From a virus, in UHGV virus genome UHGV-0188329: DNA of 41,700 nt; one strand, written 5' to 3'. Positions 4,179-41,700 of the stretch are shown here, one piece after another (position 1 is the first letter of the stretch; each line of letters opens with the position of its first letter). Both the position numbers and the translations under genes were made by a program. The notes beneath the pieces were generated by a model. That model was not told the DNA's origin. It did not search any database and saw nothing but the letters and a program-made list of their open reading frames with translations.

Positions 4179-4421
4179 TTAACCATCAACAAACTCTTCT
4201 GGTAATTTATCAACCAGTTGATGACTTATTATCAGCCATTTGCCATCCTTCGTTTCGTATGCATATTTCTGGTCTTTTATCATCATGTGTTCGGCTACTG
4301 CCCTAACTGCCTGATCGGTGACATCTTCTCTCTTTCCTACCCACATTCCTTTTTCAGTGTTTAATGTTCCTTGAAAAATACGACCGCTTAATGGGCTTGC
4401 GCCCATAGTTTTTACTCTCAT
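4179..4421 (-). CDS. Hypothetical protein immediately downstream of N (80 aa)
   Basis: Starts 11 nt after N stop; GAGAG about 9 nt upstream; occupies the position ral holds in lambda but is not Ral-like. Confidence 0.45.
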   Translation of the reverse strand: MRVKTMGASPLSGRIFQGTLNTEKGMWVGKREDVTDQAVRAVAEHMMIKDQKYAYETKDGKWLIISHQLVDKLPEEFVDG

Positions 4422-4431
4422 GTATCAGCTC

Positions 4432-4758
4432 TCAAATAAGTGGTTTGCTGCCTAATTTCATTTTCTGGCGACCAACACAAGTCACACCCATTTCACTGCG
4501 TGGCTTGCTGTACCATGTGCGCTGATTCTTGCGTTCAATACGTTGCAGGTTGCTTTCAATCTGTTCGTGGTATTCAGCCAGCACCGTAAGGTCTATCGGA
4601 TTCAGTGCGCTTTCTACTCGTGATTTCGGTTTGCGATTCAGCGAGAGAATAGGGCGGTTAACTGGTTTTGCGCTTACCCCAACCAACAGGGGATTTGCTG
4701 CTTTCCATTGAGCCTGTTTCTCTGCGCGACGTTCGCGGCGGCGTGTTTGTGCATCCAT
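4432..4758 (-). CDS. N: Antitermination protein N (lambda-type)
   Basis: Arg-rich N-terminus MDAQTRRRERRAEKQAQWKAANPLL matches lambda N; nutL immediately upstream. Confidence 0.85.
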   Translation of the reverse strand: MDAQTRRRERRAEKQAQWKAANPLLVGVSAKPVNRPILSLNRKPKSRVESALNPIDLTVLAEYHEQIESNLQRIERKNQRTWYSKPRSEMGVTCVGRQKMKLGSKPLI

Positions 4759-4956
4759 CTGGATTCTCCTGTCAGTTAGCTTTGGTGATTGGATGGCCGG
4801 CGCTGAACCCCGGCTTACTGGTTAGAGCGCCCGCACTACCAGTGACGCTGTCTTGAGGCGCAGATTGGTTACTGCTTGCCATGAGCGCTGTTTATACATT
4901 GGTCGAGCATCAGCCTGCTCATTCATCCAATCCCAAAGCCTTCTGCTTTGAATGCT

Positions 4957-4987
4957 GCCCTTCTTCAGGGCTTAATTTTTAAGAGCG
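4957..4987 (-). promoter_or_regulatory. nutL (boxA CGCTCTTAA plus boxB GCCCTGAAGAAGGGC)
   Basis: Exact lambda-type boxA and boxB hairpin read on the minus strand, between OL and N. Confidence 0.8.
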
Positions 4988-5030
4988 TCACCTTCATGGT
5001 GGTTAGTGCGTCCTGCTGATGGCTTAAAAT

Positions 5031-5112
5031 ATACCTACAGGTAAAACCGTTGTCTATACCTGCAGGTAAATAAAATTGGTGTGAGAGTTTACCTGTTTGA
5101 ATTTTCAGGTAA
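5031..5112. promoter_or_regulatory. Left operator/pL region: repeated TACCT-N2-AGGTA palindromes
   Basis: TACCTACAGGTA (5033-5044), TACCTGCAGGTA (5057-5068), plus TTTACCTG-N10-CAGGTAA (5088-5112); same motif recurs right of cI. Confidence 0.6.
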
Positions 5113-5132
5113 TTAATTTTTTGGATTGATAT

Positions 5133-5154
5133 AAAAAAGCCCGCTTTGCGGGCT
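5133..5154 (-). terminator. Intrinsic terminator ending the cI operon (tIMM-like)
   Basis: GCCCGC/GCGGGC stem with UUUG loop followed by U-run on minus strand, 12 nt after stop of the cI-coupled gene. Confidence 0.55.
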
Positions 5155-5165
5155 GAAAGGAGATG

Positions 5166-5480
5166 TCAGAAGCTATTTGGATTGCTTGGCCATTGCGGCA
5201 ATTTTGATTCTACCGGGGTGTGTTTGGGTTTGAGTCCGTTTAAGTAGTCAAGACGCTCAATGGCGCATTTATACATAGCAATCTGATCTGATGACATGTC
5301 GTCATATGACATGCCTTTGAACTTCTTAATTATCGTTTCTGCCTCATGTATAAGATTCTTCTTCCTCATGAGTTCAGCTGTATGCTTAGAGCTTACAGGA
5401 GATAACTTTGCCCATATGAAGCAGATGATTACAACAGCGACTACTATGCCGGGTATAAACATTTGCTGCTTTATCCTCAA
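5166..5480 (-). CDS. Small membrane protein co-transcribed with cI (rex-position cargo gene)
   Basis: ATGA overlap with cI stop; one N-terminal hydrophobic helix (FIPGIVVAVVIICFIWA); followed by own terminator; no recognised family. Confidence 0.5.
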   Translation of the reverse strand: MRIKQQMFIPGIVVAVVIICFIWAKLSPVSSKHTAELMRKKNLIHEAETIIKKFKGMSYDDMSSDQIAMYKCAIERLDYLNGLKPKHTPVESKLPQWPSNPNSF

Positions 5481-6163
5481 ACTTTTGGCAGATCGTCCTG
5501 GTCTACGTACCTGGTGTGTTTCACAATAGCTGAAACAAAATGCATTTTATCAACTTCTTCAACAGGAAGAGTGATTGGGCGGTGATCACTGTTTATGCTA
5601 CTAAACTGATAATCACCGTCTCTTGTTTTGTTCATGATCTTTATCATGTTGTGACCGTCTTTGGTCCTTACAAAGACTTCATCACCTGGATGTACTGGCG
5701 TATTTGGTTCAATAACAACATATTCTCCTGACTGAATCCTTGGCCACATGCTGTCACCCTTAACCTTCAGACCGTAAGCATCTTTATCGCCGCTGTAGAT
5801 GCTTAACCAACCGGATCTGAATTCAATCATATCCACTGAGCCATCAACTCCCAAAACGGCTTCACCAATTACCGGAACAAAACCCGCACGAACGTTACCC
5901 GCAAACTCAAGATGGTCCGTAGCTCCAGCTTTACCATCTGCAAGCATGTCCATCCATCCGCGTGGGAGATTAAAAGATTTTTCAATTAGTTCCATCATAT
6001 CGTCAGCAATGCGTTTTTTTCCGCTTTTTCCTTCCGGATACAGCATTCTGGAAACGTATGATGGTTCCCTTTCTATTCGACGAGCCAACTCTGAGGCCTT
6101 TCCATTACAGAATCGGTCTCTTATCTCTATCAGCCTTAGTCGTCTTTGTTCGTATTTATCCAT
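5477..6163 (-). CDS. cI: CI-type repressor (HTH plus LexA-like S24 autopeptidase domain), non-lambda immunity type
   Basis: 228 aa; C-terminal GDSMWP serine motif and downstream Lys typical of S24 peptidases; between OL and OR; divergent from cro-like gene. Confidence 0.8.
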   Translation of the reverse strand: MDKYEQRRLRLIEIRDRFCNGKASELARRIEREPSYVSRMLYPEGKSGKKRIADDMMELIEKSFNLPRGWMDMLADGKAGATDHLEFAGNVRAGFVPVIGEAVLGVDGSVDMIEFRSGWLSIYSGDKDAYGLKVKGDSMWPRIQSGEYVVIEPNTPVHPGDEVFVRTKDGHNMIKIMNKTRDGDYQFSSINSDHRPITLPVEEVDKMHFVSAIVKHTRYVDQDDLPKV

Positions 6164-6183
6164 GATTTAATTCTATCTTTGAT

Positions 6184-6239
6184 TACCTGCCGGTAAATAA
6201 CCTATGGGTATTGATTTGCTTTTTACCTACAGGTAAACT
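6184..6239. promoter_or_regulatory. Right operator region with pR (and presumably pRM)
   Basis: TACCTGCCGGTA (6184-6195), degenerate AACCTATGGGTA (6199-6210), TACCTACAGGTA (6225-6236); candidate pR -35 TTGATT (6211-6216) and -10 TAAACT (6234-6239) upstream of cro-like gene. Confidence 0.55.
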
Positions 6240-6271
6240 CATCTTATTCAACAACGGGAAGGAGATAGCAA

Positions 6272-6502
6272 ATGGAAGAACTCCGCTTGTATCTGAACTC
6301 CCTTTCACTGGAAGAGCAGAGAGAATTTGCCACCAAGTGCGGAACTTCTATCGGCTATTTGAGGAAAGCACTTAGCCGTAATCATGAATTGGGCGCAGCA
6401 CTTTGTGTTCTGATTGAGAAGTTCAGCAATGGTGAAGTGACTCGCAAAGACCTTCATCCGGTTGATTGGGAAAGCATCTGGCCTGAATTAATGGCCGCTT
6501 AA
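6272..6502 (+). CDS. cro: Cro-like transcriptional regulator (76 aa)
   Basis: Small protein divergent from cI directly right of OR; GGAGA RBS; followed by nutR. Confidence 0.6.
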   Translation: MEELRLYLNSLSLEEQREFATKCGTSIGYLRKALSRNHELGAALCVLIEKFSNGEVTRKDLHPVDWESIWPELMAA

Positions 6503-6510
6503 GTTATTAA

Positions 6511-6542
6511 CGCTCTTACACATCCCAGCCCTGAAAAAGGGC
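6511..6542 (+). promoter_or_regulatory. nutR (boxA CGCTCTTAC plus boxB GCCCTGAAAAAGGGC)
   Basis: Exact lambda-type boxA and boxB hairpin downstream of cro-like gene. Confidence 0.8.
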
Positions 6543-6618
6543 ATTACCAGAAACAAATCTCTATGGTTTTGCGTTTCTTTGCGAAGCCAACTCTATCTAA
6601 TCATTAAGGAAATTATCT

Positions 6619-6900
6619 ATGGGTACTATTGCAACTAAAAGCAAGAAAGCGGCTCGCATCGAGTCAGCCTTGCTGAACAAACTGGCACTGATGGGGCAGA
6701 AGACATTCGCTCGAGCAATGGGGGTTCCTGAATATCAGGTAAGCCGATGGAAGAATGGTTTCTTCTCGCAGGTAAGCATGATGCTGGCTGTTCTGGAATA
6801 CGGAATCGAAGACGATGAAATGGCTGAGCTGACTAAGCGGCTTGCCAATTACCTGACAAAAGAAAAAGCCCCGAAGAACGGCGAATTCTTCGAGGCCTGA
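6619..6900 (+). CDS. cII: CII-like transcriptional activator
   Basis: RIESALLNKLA ... VSRWK ... SMMLAVLEYG resembles lambda CII; AAGGAA RBS. Confidence 0.75.
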   Translation: MGTIATKSKKAARIESALLNKLALMGQKTFARAMGVPEYQVSRWKNGFFSQVSMMLAVLEYGIEDDEMAELTKRLANYLTKEKAPKNGEFFEA

Positions 6901-35556: not shown

Positions 35557-36600
35557 TTACCCTGTAAATATGCTAAGGAATGTTTTTTGAAATGATTTGT
35601 TTTTATTTTTAGCGTTAATTAATGCTACTATACTAACTTGCAGTTTTACCATTATTGTAGCAAGTGTGTAAGTAAGTACATAACTTATTAAATAATGACT
35701 ACCTATTTTTTGACACATTATGATAAATGGGATGTGCCATAAATAAATCCAAATGGAGTTTTGGGATATGAATGAAACAACCTGCCATAATCTTAAAACC
35801 TTAAGTAAAAGAACAGCTTTGTTTGAGAGCAGATAGACTACGAATATCATAAAGGTTGCATAGGACATGTAATATATCCCAGGTGGGTACTTGTCTGACT
35901 GAGTTGGATTAAAGGCACCCAAGGTAATAATGTAATATGCAGTCATGGCAGAAAATAATAATCCACAGATAATGGTTGGGGGTAATAATTCTTTATGATC
36001 AGTGCTTGCAATTTTATAACCAATGATGAAAGCAAGTGTATAAGATATAGAGTTTGATATGTATGTCCCCAAAAGTATATAAATGCTCAACTTGTCAATT
36101 CCATTATACAATGGAATTAACTGGCTATTAATTAATAAAAATGACGCGGATATTGTTAATATCGCTTTTAAATTAAGTGTGTATAGTTTTGGAGGAATGA
36201 AAGTGGCTATCACTGATATTATGAAAAAGAGTCTAATAACCCACACATAACCAAGCCCACTGGATAATGCGAATGATGTTATTATAATTGACTTATTGTA
36301 AGTAAAGTCTTTTATATTAAAAATAAACGAAATGATTTCATTTATTAAGAAAAATGCCGCGAAGAAAATCCAAGTTGGTAAAACTAAACGGCGAAATCGA
36401 GAATTAATATATTTTATTCTGTTGCTATGGCGATGTTCGGTTACACAAAAGGACATCCCCATAACCATAAACATTAAAGGAACATCAAAGTTTCGCAGTT
36501 GAGCTAGCCATAAAGGAGGCTGGACATGGGCTAGAATGATTAGAGAAAGCCCGAGAAATCTTAAAAAATCTATTTTATCAATACGCATGACTTCGTCCAT
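35557..36600 (-). CDS. Acyltransferase family 3 membrane protein (O-antigen acetylase Oac-like, lysogenic conversion candidate)
   Basis: 347 aa, multiple hydrophobic helices; N-terminal IDFLRFLGLSLIILAHV typical of acyltransferase-3; AT-rich; located between tail fibre genes and int. Confidence 0.7.
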   Translation of the reverse strand: MDEVMRIDKIDFLRFLGLSLIILAHVQPPLWLAQLRNFDVPLMFMVMGMSFCVTEHRHSNRIKYINSRFRRLVLPTWIFFAAFFLINEIISFIFNIKDFTYNKSIIITSFALSSGLGYVWVIRLFFIISVIATFIPPKLYTLNLKAILTISASFLLINSQLIPLYNGIDKLSIYILLGTYISNSISYTLAFIIGYKIASTDHKELLPPTIICGLLFSAMTAYYIITLGAFNPTQSDKYPPGIYYMSYATFMIFVVYLLSNKAVLLLKVLRLWQVVSFISQNSIWIYLWHIPFIIMCQKIGSHYLISYVLTYTLATIMVKLQVSIVALINAKNKNKSFQKTFLSIFTG

Positions 36601-37076
36601 TAGATTTTATAGATCAACGATTATACATTAGTATTGATCGGCTATGACACCATTGCTTATAGGTATGCTCTCTGTTGTATGAGTACAGCTCAGGAGCTTC
36701 GCCTTGGTTTGTTATAGCTTACGGTGCCGATTTACGATGTCGGAGTGCCGACACCGTATCGCAAATTCCCGGTAGGCAGTGGTTAGACACGATGCAGGCC
36801 GCCGGTGATTGTTGAGACTGGCAGCCTGCATAATTTACAGCCCAACCTGGCGAACTGTCGGGAACTCAGATACCAGCCACATATCGGCTTCTTCAAACAT
36901 ATCCTCGTTTCTGGTCAAGTGAGGAGTGAAAATTCATGTGCCATTTTTGTGTCACACAAGGTGAAGCATCTAACATTGTCTTGCATCATGTGCCATTAAG
37001 TTTCTTATAGTGAATGCGGCAATGTGTATGTAAAACAGCTAGTTAAATGTGATTCTACTAATTCGTAATGCGAAGG

Positions 37077-38270
37077 TCATGTGACGTTACCGTCTATCCA
37101 GTCCGCCCACCATTGCATCATTTCTCTGCGCTTATCGAGATACTGAGCATGATTGTAAATTCCACGCACAGATCCGCCGTTGGCATGTGCCAGTTGCACT
37201 TCAATGGCGTCGGCAGGCCATTCGTGCTCGTTCATAATCGTGCTGAATTCATGCCTGAATCCGTGACCGCTTTCCAGACCTTCATAGCCGATTTGTTTGA
37301 TCACAAGCAATACCGCGTTCTCGCAGATTGGCTTCTTCTTATCGTTGCGCCCGGCAAAAACAAACTCTGAGACTGGTTTAGTGATGGAGCTTAGCGTAGT
37401 GAGAAGCTCAACCACCTGGTCTGACATAGGAACAACATGAATTTTGCGTCCCTTCATCACATTGGCGTCGATGGTGATAATCCTGTTTTCAAAATCGACG
37501 TTCTTCCATAGCATGGAACGAAGCTCTTTTGTTCTGAGGGCTGTGTAGCGTAAAACTTTGGTCGCAATGAGCGATACGATACTTCCTGAAAATGTTGCAA
37601 GTGCTTTGTTGAATTCCGGGATCTGGTCTGCAGGAAGAAACGGGAAGTTCTTCTTGCGGTATCCCTTCATGGCGTCAGCAAGGTCAGGTGACGGGTTATA
37701 TTTAGCCCTTCCGGTGACAATAGCGTAACGGAAAACCTCGCCGCATCTTCTGCGTGCTTTGTTGGCTCGCTCCATTGCGCCGCGATCTTCAAATCTGCGG
37801 ATTACTTCCAGCAGTTTCATCGGCTCAATATCCTGAATTTCAAGGCCGCCGATGATAGGTAAAATGTCGTCATCAAACATCTTTGCAAGTTCATTTGCAT
37901 AGCCTACTGACCAGACTTGCTTCTTGTGCTCGTACCATTCCTTGTAAATGGCGCTAAAGGAATTGTTGTTAGACGAAGCCTTTTTCGCCTTTACCGGATC
38001 GATGCCAACCGAGATGTCTTTCCTCGCAGTCCATGCTTTATCCCTTGCCTCCTGCAAAGTCATAAGCGGATATTTTCCTACGGTCAGTATTTTTTCCTTA
38101 CCGTCAATCTTGTAGCGAAGCTGCCATACCTTTTTCCCGGATACAGGGACATAAAGGTACAGGCCATTACCATCGAGAAGGCGATATGGTTTTTCTTTCG
38201 GCTTTGCTGCTTCAATCTGCTTAACGGTGAGCATGGGTAAAAATCCGGTGGGTAAAATTATTTTATCCAC
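37077..38270 (-). CDS. int: Tyrosine integrase (P4-like, tRNA-associated)
   Basis: N-terminal LTVKQIEAAKPKEKPYRLLDGNGLYLYV arm-binding-like segment; C-terminal GHGFRHEF ... Y catalytic motifs; adjacent to tRNA 3' end; alternative ATG start near 38234. Confidence 0.85.
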   Translation of the reverse strand: MDKIILPTGFLPMLTVKQIEAAKPKEKPYRLLDGNGLYLYVPVSGKKVWQLRYKIDGKEKILTVGKYPLMTLQEARDKAWTARKDISVGIDPVKAKKASSNNNSFSAIYKEWYEHKKQVWSVGYANELAKMFDDDILPIIGGLEIQDIEPMKLLEVIRRFEDRGAMERANKARRRCGEVFRYAIVTGRAKYNPSPDLADAMKGYRKKNFPFLPADQIPEFNKALATFSGSIVSLIATKVLRYTALRTKELRSMLWKNVDFENRIITIDANVMKGRKIHVVPMSDQVVELLTTLSSITKPVSEFVFAGRNDKKKPICENAVLLVIKQIGYEGLESGHGFRHEFSTIMNEHEWPADAIEVQLAHANGGSVRGIYNHAQYLDKRREMMQWWADWIDGNVT

Positions 38271-38395
38271 TTTTTACCCGTCATGGAGTGCGGCTGTCAA
38301 CGATCTGACGCGAACCATGACGAACTGCGAATCTACGGAATGCTTGATATTCAGGGGATTTTGCGGACTGGTACGGATGGGAGCGAACTGATAAA

Positions 38396-38470
38396 TGGTG
38401 TCCCCTGCAGGAATCGAACCTGCAATTAGCCCTTAGGAGGGGCTCGTTATATCCATTTAACTAAGAGGAC
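38396..38470 (-). tRNA. argW: tRNA-Arg (anticodon CCU), argW-type; prophage integration target
   Basis: Reverse complement reads GTCCTCTTAGTTAAATGGATATAACGAGCCCCTCCTAAGGGCTAATTGCAGGTTCGATTCCTGCAGGGGACACCA with T-loop GTTCGATTC, anticodon loop CUCCUAA and 3' CCA. Confidence 0.85.
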
Positions 38471-38545
38471 AATGCGGCATGAGTATACCCGCTAATGGAG
38501 TGCGGGGTAAGTACGCTGCCGCTCGATTGCTTAAACCCTCGCCAT

Positions 38546-39478
38546 TTATGCCGGGTTTTTATAATTTTTCTTAATGTTTTCCGCACGTTCTGCTTTTTGG
38601 CGTGCTTCTGCTTTACGCTTATTGCTCATGTCGTTACGAATCTGTGCATGACTCATTAACGCGAAGATAAAGGTGCCGCCGCAGATGTTCCCCGCTAAAG
38701 TAGGTAGTGCGAAGGGCCAGATGAAATCGCTCCAGTGCAGCGTACCGTTAAACACCAGATAGAGGATTTCAACAGAACCGACCACGATATGGGTGGTGTC
38801 ACCCAGGGCAATAAGCCAGGTCATCAATATAATCACCACAATCTTTGCCGCACCCGCTGCAGGAAACATCCAAACCATAGTGGCGATCAGCCAGCCGGAA
38901 ATGATCGCGTTGGCAAACATCTCGCTGGGGGTGTTCTTCATCACATCCATGCCGATTTTGACAAATGCATCGCGAGTTTCTTCATTGAAGATAGGCATAT
39001 ATTCAAATGCCCACGCCGCAATACCTGTCCCGAGAATATTACCCAGCAGCACGACGCCCCATAACCGTATAAGTAAGCCGACGTTGCTCATTGTCGGTTT
39101 TTGCATGACGGGTAGTACCGCAGTCACGGTATTTTCGGTAAATAATTGCTGGCGGGCCATAATGACGATAATAAAACCAAAGGTATAACCGAGATTCTCC
39201 AGCAAGAAGCTGCCCGGCACACCTTCCAGTTCGACATGAAATATCCCTTTTGCCAGTAACGAAGCGCCCATCGACAGACCCGCCGCAATGGCTGACCACA
39301 GTAGCGCCATTGCGTCGCGTTCCAGCTCTTTTTCACCATCCTGGCGGATATGCTCATGAATTGCCATCGCCCGGGAGGGGAGTCGGTCTTCATCTATTTC
39401 TATTTTTTTGCCGCGCTCTTTTTCTTCGCTCTCAACTTCAATTTCGTCGCTGTGTTGATCAATTTTGTCGTTGTCCAT
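38546..39478 (-). CDS. yfdC: Formate/nitrite transporter family inner membrane protein (YfdC-like)
   Basis: 310 aa polytopic membrane protein; position next to argW and mlaA matches the E. coli K-12 arrangement. Confidence 0.75.
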   Translation of the reverse strand: MDNDKIDQHSDEIEVESEEKERGKKIEIDEDRLPSRAMAIHEHIRQDGEKELERDAMALLWSAIAAGLSMGASLLAKGIFHVELEGVPGSFLLENLGYTFGFIIVIMARQQLFTENTVTAVLPVMQKPTMSNVGLLIRLWGVVLLGNILGTGIAAWAFEYMPIFNEETRDAFVKIGMDVMKNTPSEMFANAIISGWLIATMVWMFPAAGAAKIVVIILMTWLIALGDTTHIVVGSVEILYLVFNGTLHWSDFIWPFALPTLAGNICGGTFIFALMSHAQIRNDMSNKRKAEARQKAERAENIKKNYKNPA

Positions 39479-39771
39479 GGTCTCTTCTCTTGAATTAGCA
39501 CGTATAGCTAAAGCGTAGCGGCTTTTTTGCTCGCAACTGACGGGAGTTACTCTGAAAATGTAGAAAAGGCTGCGTTTGCCTTTTTCTGTTTCTATAGAAT
39601 CAAGTAGCCTACAGGGCGGCGATTACCAGGCTATGATCAAATCAGCAAATCAGGGCGTCTGGACATCAGTTGACGTGCTGTTACAATCGCCCACACCTAA
39701 ACAGGCGGATACGGTATCGTTCCGTCATGGATGGCAAACTGCATAAGCCATAAAAAAACAGGGAGACATTT

Positions 39772-40527
39772 ATGAAGCTTCGCCTGTCGGCGCTTGCTCT
39801 GGGAACTACGCTTCTGGTGGGGTGTGCGAGTTCCGGTACAGATCAGCAAGGGCGTTCTGACCCGTTAGAAGGGTTCAACCGCACCATGTACAACTTCAAC
39901 TTCAATGTATTAGACCCGTATATTGTTCGACCGGTCGCTGTCGCCTGGCGTGATTATGTTCCGCAACCGGCGCGTAACGGTTTGAGCAACTTTACCGGCA
40001 ACCTTGAAGAACCTGCGGTGATGGTTAACTACTTCTTGCAGGGCGACCCTTATCAGGGGATGGTCCACTTTACCCGCTTTTTCCTGAACACCATTTTGGG
40101 GATGGGCGGCTTTATTGATGTTGCAGGGATGGCGAACCCGAAACTGCAACGGACTGAACCTCACCGCTTCGGTAGTACGCTTGGTCATTATGGCGTGGGT
40201 TATGGGCCGTACGTTCAGTTACCATTCTACGGTAGCTTCACGCTGCGTGATGACGGTGGTGATATGGCGGATGGTCTTTACCCGGTTCTTTCCTGGTTGA
40301 CCTGGCCGATGTCTGTGGGTAAATGGACGCTTGAAGGGATCGAAACCCGCGCTCAGCTGCTGGATTCCGACGGTCTGCTGCGTCAGTCGTCCGATCCTTA
40401 TATTATGGTGCGCGAAGCGTACTTCCAGCGTCATGATTTCATCGCTAATGGCGGCGAACTCAAACCGCAGGAAAATCCGAACGCGCAAGCGATTCAGGAT
40501 GATTTAAAAGATATCGATTCTGAATAA
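39772..40527 (+). CDS. mlaA: Outer membrane lipoprotein MlaA (VacJ)
   Basis: 251 aa; lipoprotein signal MKLRLSALALGTTLLVGC; translation matches MlaA/VacJ. Confidence 0.9.
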   Translation: MKLRLSALALGTTLLVGCASSGTDQQGRSDPLEGFNRTMYNFNFNVLDPYIVRPVAVAWRDYVPQPARNGLSNFTGNLEEPAVMVNYFLQGDPYQGMVHFTRFFLNTILGMGGFIDVAGMANPKLQRTEPHRFGSTLGHYGVGYGPYVQLPFYGSFTLRDDGGDMADGLYPVLSWLTWPMSVGKWTLEGIETRAQLLDSDGLLRQSSDPYIMVREAYFQRHDFIANGGELKPQENPNAQAIQDDLKDIDSE

Positions 40528-40542
40528 GAAATAAATAAAAAA

Positions 40543-40568
40543 GGTGAGTCGCAAAACTCACCTTTTTT
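40543..40568 (+). terminator. Intrinsic terminator downstream of mlaA
   Basis: GGTGAGT/ACTCACC stem flanked by A-run upstream and TTTTTT downstream. Confidence 0.6.
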
Positions 40569-40708
40569 GTTGTTATCCCTCAATTACCACAAGTAAAAGG
40601 AGATAAACCGACAATGACCCGGACGTAATGATGTAAAAATACTGATGTTCGTCATTGACTATTTCCGATATTCAGTCGTTGAAAAATCAAAAAACTGGAA
40701 AAATAATT

Positions 40709-41700
40709 TTAAATATCATCAAAATTAACACCTAACGCAGATAGTTGATTAATTTCATTTTGATATTCCGTCTGGCAATTTTGAAGCCTTTCTTCAATTT
40801 TACCTTCGAGTTTCTTATAGTGCACATATATATTTTGAGAATGGTCAGTGTTAACTTCGTTATCGAATAAAGTAGAAACTATTTCTTTTACATTATTGCG
40901 TCTATATTTTGCATTGTCCACTTGAAAATTATATCTTATTGCTCGACCATAACGTTTAAAAACTTCGTTTGGTTCTTTCAGTCTTTCCCCGTTGAGTTCG
41001 TTTACAACTTGATGATTTATACCTGTTGCAAATAATTCTGCCATGAGAGCTTTATTGCTTTCAAATGACGCTGAAGCATTCCTGGCGTTTTCACTACAAT
41101 ATTGTGTGAGACTATCACCATTAATACGAATTCCTCTTTTAATGTGGTAGTTGTCCTGATCGTAGTAACCGAGCGATAAATAATCGTTTCCGTTTATATT
41201 TTTAATTACAATGGCGAGAGTGTTGTATTTTTTATCTTTACCGTGCCAGGTAAATAAGTCCGTTGGTTTGCTTTTCTCGTTCTCATCGAATTTCGTTACA
41301 GTATGTATGAGGTTACGTGATATTTTATCGAAAATGAAATCAGGATCTCCATTATATATTTCTTTTATTGCGCTGAAGATATTTTTCTTGTTATTGATAT
41401 CATCAGTATTCTCTACTACATTTTCATTGATGATGGTTTGGCCGACTTTTTTGTTTTCATCGTTCGCAGGTGATTTTGTTGGTTCTTGATTATCAAAAGT
41501 AATATCGTCTGTATCATTGGAGTCAATGCCAATATCACTACGATCATCAATACCACTAACAATAATACCATCAGTAAATTCAGCATTATTTATATCATCA
41601 TGAGTCTTCTCAACTATGTTGTCATTAATGATAGCACGGACGAGTTCTTTGTCTTTATAGCTCGCAAGTAATTTTATTGTTTCTTGGTTATCGATACCAA
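40709..41700 (-). CDS. AT-rich chromosomal gene, 5'-truncated by window edge (possibly yfdF-like)
   Basis: Minus-strand frame stays open upstream of the ORF-track Met at 41044 (checked across 41030-41080 and 41580-41700); assignment to yfdF rests only on K-12 gene order. Confidence 0.4.
   Translation of the reverse strand, partial: GIDNQETIKLLASYKDKELVRAIINDNIVEKTHDDINNAEFTDGIIVSGIDDRSDIGIDSNDTDDITFDNQEPTKSPANDENKKVGQTIINENVVENTDDINNKKNIFSAIKEIYNGDPDFIFDKISRNLIHTVTKFDENEKSKPTDLFTWHGKDKKYNTLAIVIKNINGNDYLSLGYYDQDNYHIKRGIRINGDSLTQYCSENARNASASFESNKALMAELFATGINHQVVNELNGERLKEPNEVFKRYGRAIRYNFQVDNAKYRRNNVKEIVSTLFDNEVNTDHSQNIYVHYKKLEGKIEERLQNCQTEYQNEINQLSALGVNFDDI

Follow-up and report, generated by a model that had tools for sequence, protein, structure and literature searches.

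In lambdoid prophages, the slot between the repressor gene cI and the antiterminator gene N is a hotspot for accessory and defence genes that are expressed in the lysogen, such as rexAB in lambda and bstA, which is cotranscribed with cI and encodes an abortive-infection protein of the Salmonella prophage BTP1 (PMC8585504, PMC7067206). RexB is an inner-membrane protein (PMC8585504), and lysogen-expressed slots also hold morons that are not involved in defence (PMC7067206). In P22, the interval between gene 16 (ejection) and gene 9 (tailspike) is the position of sieA (PMC10883804; also the P22 annotation), which encodes an inner-membrane exclusion protein that blocks DNA delivery through gp16/gp20 (PMC10883804). 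Both slots are transcribed in the lysogens of these model phages and are known to hold exclusion or abortive-infection genes. Other phage- or prophage-encoded proteins, namely T4 Sp and Imm, lactococcal Sie2009 and HK97 gp15, also act at the envelope against DNA entry.

Here we describe the gene that occupies the cI-to-N slot in the UHGV virus genome UHGV-0188329, which was analysed over its whole length of 41,700 nucleotides (hereafter, the window). To judge from its gene content, the window is a myovirus-tailed prophage that carries the immunity module of phage mEp043 and is integrated at argW. The cro-cI-ORF-OL block is 98.4% identical at the DNA level to the mEp043 immunity region, where the corresponding open reading frame (ORF) is annotated as a hypothetical protein, and the late genes resemble those of the myovirus-tailed phages Omnitron and SEN34. 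The integrase gene (37077-38270) abuts a tRNA-Arg(CCT) gene (38396-38470), and beyond the prophage lie a formate/nitrite-transporter-family gene (38546-39478) and mlaA (39772-40527). An Acyl_transf_3 gene for an O-antigen-type acyltransferase (35557-36600) is located next to int. The right end of the window (35557-41700) captures the junction between a lysogenic-conversion prophage at argW and the chromosome.

The cI-linked gene and its operon

The ORF (minus strand, 5166..5462, stop codon included), as delimited by the ORF list, the match to PHROG 10450 and the pattern of constraint, encodes a putative single-pass membrane protein of 98 aa. The original prediction had it as a 104-aa ORF that starts with an ATGA overlap on the cI stop. 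A minus-strand frame of 104 codons does exist at 5166-5480 in the ORF list, but homologues favour the 98-aa start, and the overlap is of a different kind. The minus-strand letters at the junction read ...CCA AAA GTT TGA GGA TAA AGC AGC AAA TG: the TTG at 5480, which opens the longer frame and would prepend MRIKQQ to the 98-aa form, shares its G and the next A with the cI TGA stop, resulting in a TTGA overlap, whereas the first ATG (5462) lies 18 nt downstream of this TTG and 14 nt past the cI stop. Both forms end at the TGA at 5168-5166. A GAGGA Shine-Dalgarno sequence (5474..5478, minus strand) overlaps the cI TGA (5479-5477), is separated from ATG 5462 by an 11-nt spacer, and is unchanged in 30/30 copies.

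Four comparative observations lead us to take ATG 5462 as, probably, the main start. The alignment to the PHROG 10450 profile (98 positions) begins at the Met of this ATG; distant homologues all begin with M/V-[YFW]-I-[PS] at the aligned Met and carry no upstream extension; the start codon of the 98-aa form is ATG or GTG, varying among the 31 near-identical copies and yet always a start; and in two homologues next to cI (L059 and L060) the gene starts 3-4 nt past the cI stop, with GAGGA 8 nt upstream. The TTGA-coupled 104-aa form was rejected as the main product, the MRIKQQ extension being absent from all homologues and from the PHROG profile. The 18 nt between TTG 5480 and ATG 5462 are invariant among the copies, and initiation at the TTG could still occur. 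Database records from Shigella flexneri and E. coli contain a 'hypothetical protein' with precisely this 98-aa sequence. The gene is tightly linked to cI, and its translation is probably reinitiated after that of cI, though not by way of an ATGA overlap. The ATG/GTG variation (5460-5462 in the window; L027-L032 and mEp043; L036-L057) is seen in both branches of the family described below; P22 sieA also starts with GTG, and such variation may reflect tuning to low expression.

The upstream gene (5477..6163, minus strand; ORF list, Pfam, PHROG) encodes a cI-type prophage repressor of 228 aa with an S24 peptidase C-terminal domain (Pfam Peptidase_S24, E = 1.4e-17; PHROG 4, 'transcriptional repressor'). 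No Pfam HTH model matched its N-terminal domain, for which only PHROGs 27486 and 5736 were recovered. A consensus scan located a promoter (TTTACC-16-TAGAAT, 6170..6197, minus strand) to which we assign a function by analogy with lambda PRM. The -10 hexamer of this promoter (TAGAAT) stops 6 nt short of the cI ATG, and, as with lambda, cI is thus probably translated from a leaderless mRNA. In the OR operator cluster (6184..6235), a pattern search found TACCTGCCGGTA at 6184-6195 and TACCTACAGGTA at 6224-6235, and the sequence shows a related site between the two. The operator motif has 4 matches in the window as against 0.45 expected, and all 4 are at OL or OR.

In the interval between cI and the ORF, there is no terminator and no promoter-like site. 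The intrinsic terminator of the cI-ORF transcript (5132..5154, minus strand; AGCCCGC-AAA-GCGGGCT followed by UUUUUU), which corresponds to lambda tImm, starts 11 nt past the TGA of the ORF and is unchanged in 30/30 copies. Its hairpin (5154-5138, minus strand) consists of a 7-bp stem with 6 GC pairs and a 3-nt loop, followed by the U6 tract; the fold has a dG of -12.6 kcal/mol (z = -3.0), and the element was also found by a terminator scan. Next comes OL (within 5028..5111, minus strand), where a pattern search and a scan found operators at 5032-5043, 5057-5068 and 5090-5111. The first two fit TACCTNNAGGTA, as TACCTACAGGTA at 5032 and TACCTGCAGGTA at 5057, and the third is TACCTG-N10-CAGGTA. 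A PL-like promoter (TAGACA-17-TATATT, 5056-5028, minus strand; consensus scan) is followed by a lambda-type nutL boxB, GCCCTGAAGAAGGGC (4957-4971; hairpin scan, with a Megablast match to lambda nutL), upstream of the gene for a lambda-type antiterminator N (4432..4758, minus strand; Pfam N36, E = 1.5e-26).

The minus-strand order is, then, cI (6163-5477), the ORF (5462-5166), the terminator (5154-5132), OL/PL (5111-5028) and N (4758-4432), so that a single gene stands between cI and the terminator and OL, matching the lambda layout of cI, rexAB, tImm, OL/PL and N. This bears out two claims of the original prediction, that the gene takes the position of rexAB and that it has its own intrinsic terminator within 12 nt, just before OL. 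We infer that cI is the first gene of a lysogenic operon and the ORF its second and last. Directly downstream of N, an 80-aa DUF7446/PHROG 1578 gene of unknown function (4179-4421, minus strand) occupies the site where lambda and many of its relatives have sieB or ral (compare L003).

The ORF is by all comparative measures a real gene under purifying selection. Its frame is uninterrupted in each of the 31 copies examined (mEp043, the window and 29 loci from IMG/VR) and is also intact in two E. coli chromosomes; pN/pS is 0.20 for the ORF as against 0.10 for the adjacent cI, and third-codon positions account for 12 of the 19 segregating sites. Homologues with only 30-43% identity retain the length, the transmembrane helix and the motifs, with I38, E40, A41, A67 and L71 invariant and K34, R70 and W91-P92 nearly so, and the antisense frames all carry stops in every homologue. 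An antisense ORF (5296-5529, plus strand) with a pN/pS of 0.17 was considered and rejected: this value is the expected artefact of wobble positions shared with the real frame, and the antisense frames are closed in all homologues. A scan of 4300-6700 of the window against Rfam gave nothing near a gathering score. The prophage sRNA svsR, which lies inside cI, at its 3' end, in the lambdoid prophage NC-SV (PMC12803456), was likewise set aside, as it shares nothing evident with the ORF. A search for a second copy of the gene in the window found none. In one of the 30 copies (L014, IMGVR_UViG_2513237219_000004; cI region upstream of 3001), the cI frame is disrupted within its first ~45 codons, apparently by an indel, and the small ORF is intact.

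The PHROG 10450 family and its two genomic slots

The original prediction found no family for this protein, which is in line with the searches of Pfam, NCBIfam and PADLOC, none of which assigned one. The protein does match, over its full length, PHROG 10450, a family of unknown function (E = 1.1e-54; residues 1-98 on profile positions 1-98 of 98), and all 11 diverse relatives tested fall in the same PHROG. The gene thus belongs to a family without a name, a Pfam model or a studied member, which is represented in mEp043 (with an orthologue of 93.9% identity at the corresponding position) and in the P22-like phages N7 and HZ41; literature searches on mEp043 and on genes downstream of cI found no study of any member.

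PHROG 10450 is a small family confined to Enterobacterales. Searched exhaustively with HMMER, 1.84 billion representative proteins gave only ten matches at E <= 1e-3, and a profile search of 5.8 billion clusters gave 28; where an organism is named, the matches are from E. coli, E. fergusonii, Salmonella and Morganella, and all are hypothetical proteins. Members are found in only 5 of 50,697 phage records (three of mEp043, N7 and HZ41). Among 5,426 complete E. coli genomes, 52 have the cI-slot block and 57 have the allele in the sieA slot (~1% each), and the family extends to Shigella, Salmonella and Morganella. For the cI-slot block, 29 of the 30 RefSeq E. coli matches listed show only an 'S24 family peptidase' in the PGAP annotation; for a GTG-start variant (L003, 2567-2770; L004), PGAP predicts a shortened product of 67 aa, without the membrane helix, even though the full frame is intact.

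The protein (~11 kDa) is predicted to begin with an N-terminal transmembrane helix, which is followed by a hairpin of two helices and a short, conserved tail with Trp-Pro. The putative transmembrane helix (codons 2-20, FIPGIVVAVVIICFIWAKL; 5403..5459, minus strand) was delimited from hydropathy, flanking charge and an AF2 helix: residues 2-20 of the 98-aa form are the single hydrophobic segment (mean Kyte-Doolittle 2.5), and AF2 places a helix there, which agrees with the single N-terminal hydrophobic helix originally described. The N-side flank of this helix has 0-2 Lys/Arg in every family member and the 15 residues C-terminal of it have 1-6, exceeding the N-side number in all members except P0016, for which the called start adds an N-terminal extension. 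The positive-inside rule predicts that the N-terminus is outside and the soluble domain in the cytoplasm, and this is the outcome of the topology analysis proposed along with the original prediction. In the structure prediction, proposed likewise, AF2 gave a helix anchor and a helical hairpin; the structural search yielded no informative neighbour, the fold being a generic helical hairpin, and a profile searched against PDB sequences gave no match with E below 0.5. We take T4 Sp and Imm, Sie2009 and HK97 gp15 to be of a similar size class and to combine an N-terminal anchor with a small soluble domain. The likeness is one of architecture, and the predicted orientation of the window protein, with the soluble domain inside, may differ from that of Sp and Sie2009.

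Members of the family occupy two genomic slots. The first, directly after this type of cI, is where the gene lies in the window, mEp043 and the 29 IMG/VR loci, and where two homologues of 42-43% identity are also found. In the loci of these two (L059 and L060), cI is 84-85% identical while the ORF is 42-43% identical, and the nucleotide similarity, 75-82% over cro-cI and over OL, is lost exactly over the small ORF. Because the drop in similarity is confined to the ORF and cI is conserved, the ORF is the part of this otherwise conserved module that either evolves fast or has been replaced by another allele, and divergence so far above that of the flanks is typical of genes in phage-phage conflict. 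The ORF further has the features of a moron: P22 has nothing between c2 and OL where lambda has rexAB, the ORF comes with its own terminator, and the DNA similarity to related immunity regions is lost precisely over it. Siphovirus, myovirus and podovirus virions are all represented among the phages that have a cI-linked copy.

The second slot, which holds the larger branch of the family, is the gene 16-gene 9 interval of P22-like prophages. Here the gene is convergent on gene 16 and often lies downstream of mnt, that is, it takes the position of sieA, and P22-type SieA was absent from 30/30 P22-like family loci screened with tblastn. In one of these loci (L043), a stretch with 95.6% identity to P22 extends from a point inside mnt across orf59a, the terminator of mnt, PsieA as annotated and the Shine-Dalgarno sequence. 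It ends at P22 position 13827, where the GTG of sieA coincides with that of the family gene. At least 96% of the 73-nt segment from PsieA to the start is kept in 5 of 26 loci, and most others keep the 5'UTR and the Shine-Dalgarno sequence. Since identity to P22 stops exactly at the shared GTG, the family gene is, on this alignment, an ORF-for-ORF substitute for sieA in some P22-like loci. Both paralogues are present on one P22-like contig of 38,108 bp (IMGVR_UViG_2563366933_000009; L018 in the cI slot, L053 in the sieA slot), and this co-occurrence suggests that the two are not redundant and have distinct specificities.

Additional genes accompany the family in some loci. In Morganella morganii prophages (L062-L064), a gene with a Rap1a domain (~4629-4988 in L062) lies between mnt and the family gene; Rap1a is otherwise tied to type VI secretion immunity and is an unusual cargo for a P22-like immI region. 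In phage N7 (L002, 2008-2848), two further unknown genes, ORF16 and ORF15, are found in this place, one product being a 115-aa protein with a CxxC...CxxC zinc-finger-like spacing and the other a protein of 169 aa whose single hydrophobic helix is central. Neither product is similar to SieA.

Despite the shared position, PHROG 10450 proteins and SieA differ in sequence. Both are prophage proteins of the inner membrane (as predicted in the case of the family), both have an aromatic-Pro motif near the C-terminus, and relatives in the sieA position include some with P22's own PsieA, Shine-Dalgarno sequence and GTG; SieA is expressed in the lysogen and, by analogy, the family member would be too. 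However, SieA (types A-C) has 164-200 aa, several transmembrane segments and the cytoplasmic motif FxRYPxEAxxFNK (PMC10883804), whereas PHROG 10450 proteins have ~100 aa, one predicted transmembrane helix and no such motif (alignments A1 and A2), and the sieA slot is not where the window copy lies: its place is the cI operon of a lambdoid prophage with a myovirus tail. Homology to SieA was examined and rejected, as hhalign of A2 against P22 SieA gave a probability of 0.4% over 22 hydrophobic columns only.

The same holds for the other occupants of these slots. Like rexAB, the ORF follows cI, precedes a terminator and OL and is presumably transcribed from PRM/PRE. It is, however, one gene instead of two, with one predicted helix as opposed to the polytopic RexB and without a RexA-like partner, and the Pfam and PHROG matches include neither the RexA nor the RexB family. 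With bstA it shares the arrangement of a single gene directly downstream of the prophage repressor under a common promoter, and the linkage to the repressor is conserved across homologues, but the two proteins have no sequence relationship (no PADLOC defence match), and the window protein is small and apparently membrane-anchored. Moreover, neither the window protein nor the relatives tested matched any of the PHROGs annotated as superinfection exclusion. By sequence, size and transmembrane architecture, the gene is not a member of the SieA, RexA/RexB or BstA families.

Functional interpretation

We propose that the cI-ORF transcript is made from PRM, and from PRE while lysogeny is established, that translation of the ORF would begin at ATG 5462 via the GAGGA overlapping the cI stop, and that the transcript would end at its own terminator before OL. 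Because it would belong to the PRM-transcribed lysogenic cI operon, the protein would be made continuously in the lysogen. There it would reside in the inner membrane and guard the lysogen against superinfecting heteroimmune phages, the favoured mode being that it hinders genome entry at the inner membrane, as SieA does in P22. Lysogen-expressed phage exclusion, with such an entry block as the preferred mechanism, appears to be the best-supported explanation, if one that we would place just short of an even chance, because a constrained, predicted single-pass membrane protein occurs in both slots, replaces sieA with precision and diverges faster than the repressor. The original idea of a superinfection-exclusion or abortive-infection determinant gains independent support from the branch in the sieA slot.

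Several observations weigh against exclusion. There is no similarity to known exclusion or defence proteins, and the fold is uninformative. The evidence from the slots is guilt by association, as the same slots hold non-defence genes. Furthermore, cI-linked copies are spread across virion types, which is not obviously expected of a blocker of one injection machinery, and a soluble domain in the cytoplasm makes a direct block of a periplasmic DNA conduit less straightforward. A bolder hypothesis is that PHROG 10450 represents an unrecognised class of single-pass inner-membrane exclusion proteins that can be plugged into either the rexAB or the sieA slot and act from the cytoplasmic face to block entry, their mechanism being unrelated to SieA's and perhaps effective across virion types; we regard this as conceivable, though rather doubtful.

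An unlikely alternative is that the protein is a lysogenic-conversion factor unrelated to defence, which modulates a host inner-membrane protein or an envelope property such as transport, stress tolerance or colonisation. Lysogen-expressed slots do carry non-defence morons (PMC7067206), the family is confined to prophages of gut Enterobacterales, the window prophage has an O-antigen-type acyltransferase gene next to int, and the gene travels with the immunity module whatever the virion type. A factor of this kind is, however, harder to reconcile with the precise allelic replacement of sieA under PsieA and with a divergence that is very rapid relative to cI and more typical of conflict genes.

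Somewhat less likely still is an abortive-infection effector that reacts to phage infection by disturbing the inner membrane, through depolarisation or early lysis, so that the cell dies and the spread of the phage stops, as proposed for RexB. The gene does occupy the rexAB slot (PMC8585504), a single helix with a small soluble domain could serve as a sensor or an oligomerisation module, and the gene stands alone, with neighbours that differ between contexts. Yet it has no partner or sensor gene and no RexA/RexB match in Pfam, and PADLOC-DB v2 gave no match for 5 of the 6 members scanned (the window protein and four of five relatives), the sixth (P0009) having one sub-threshold match (E = 0.01). 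Constitutive expression, whether from PRM or from PsieA, speaks against intrinsic toxicity of the protein, and sieA, with which the gene is exactly swapped, encodes an entry blocker, not an Abi protein (PMC10883804).

We consider it improbable that the protein is an accessory regulator of the prophage life cycle, that is, a modulator anchored in the membrane that would influence induction or the choice between lysis and lysogeny, acting, for example, via FtsH/HflKC or repressor turnover. Tight coupling to one type of cI over a range of 42-100% ORF identity would fit this reading, as would expression from both PRE and PRM, and RexAB reportedly influences the lysogenic-lytic transition. Most family members, however, are not linked to cI but lie in the gene 16-gene 9 interval of P22-like prophages among varied neighbours, and, because they sit away from cI, a function independent of it is indicated. 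Finally, the notion that the ORF is spurious and the spacer between cI and the terminator non-coding or RNA-encoding, which could appeal to the lack of a PGAP gene call there in most RefSeq E. coli genomes with the block and to the absence of the TTG-start 104-aa version from the protein collection, has next to no chance of being correct and is already refuted by the comparative data, given the purifying selection in frame, the 31/31 intact copies, the deep homologues with their motifs, the closed antisense frames and the lack of any Rfam match that reaches a gathering score.

Returning to phage exclusion, the gene is a good candidate for a new lysogen-protecting family. PHROG 10450 is an uncharacterised family within a known class, that of lysogen-expressed membrane proteins of prophages; an unnamed small membrane moron beside cI is unsurprising in itself, and the link to sieA is both new and specific, the sieA swap offering a clean and directly testable case. 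The cI-slot allele is mostly missed by standard annotation, so that any contribution that it makes to phage resistance, a matter of relevance to phage therapy and typing, is at present invisible. Were the function to be confirmed, the small set of prophage exclusion proteins that are understood would gain a single-gene determinant of compact size (~100 aa), and the hotspots between cI and N in lambdoid prophages and between gene 16 and gene 9 in P22-like prophages would be seen to draw on one shared gene pool.
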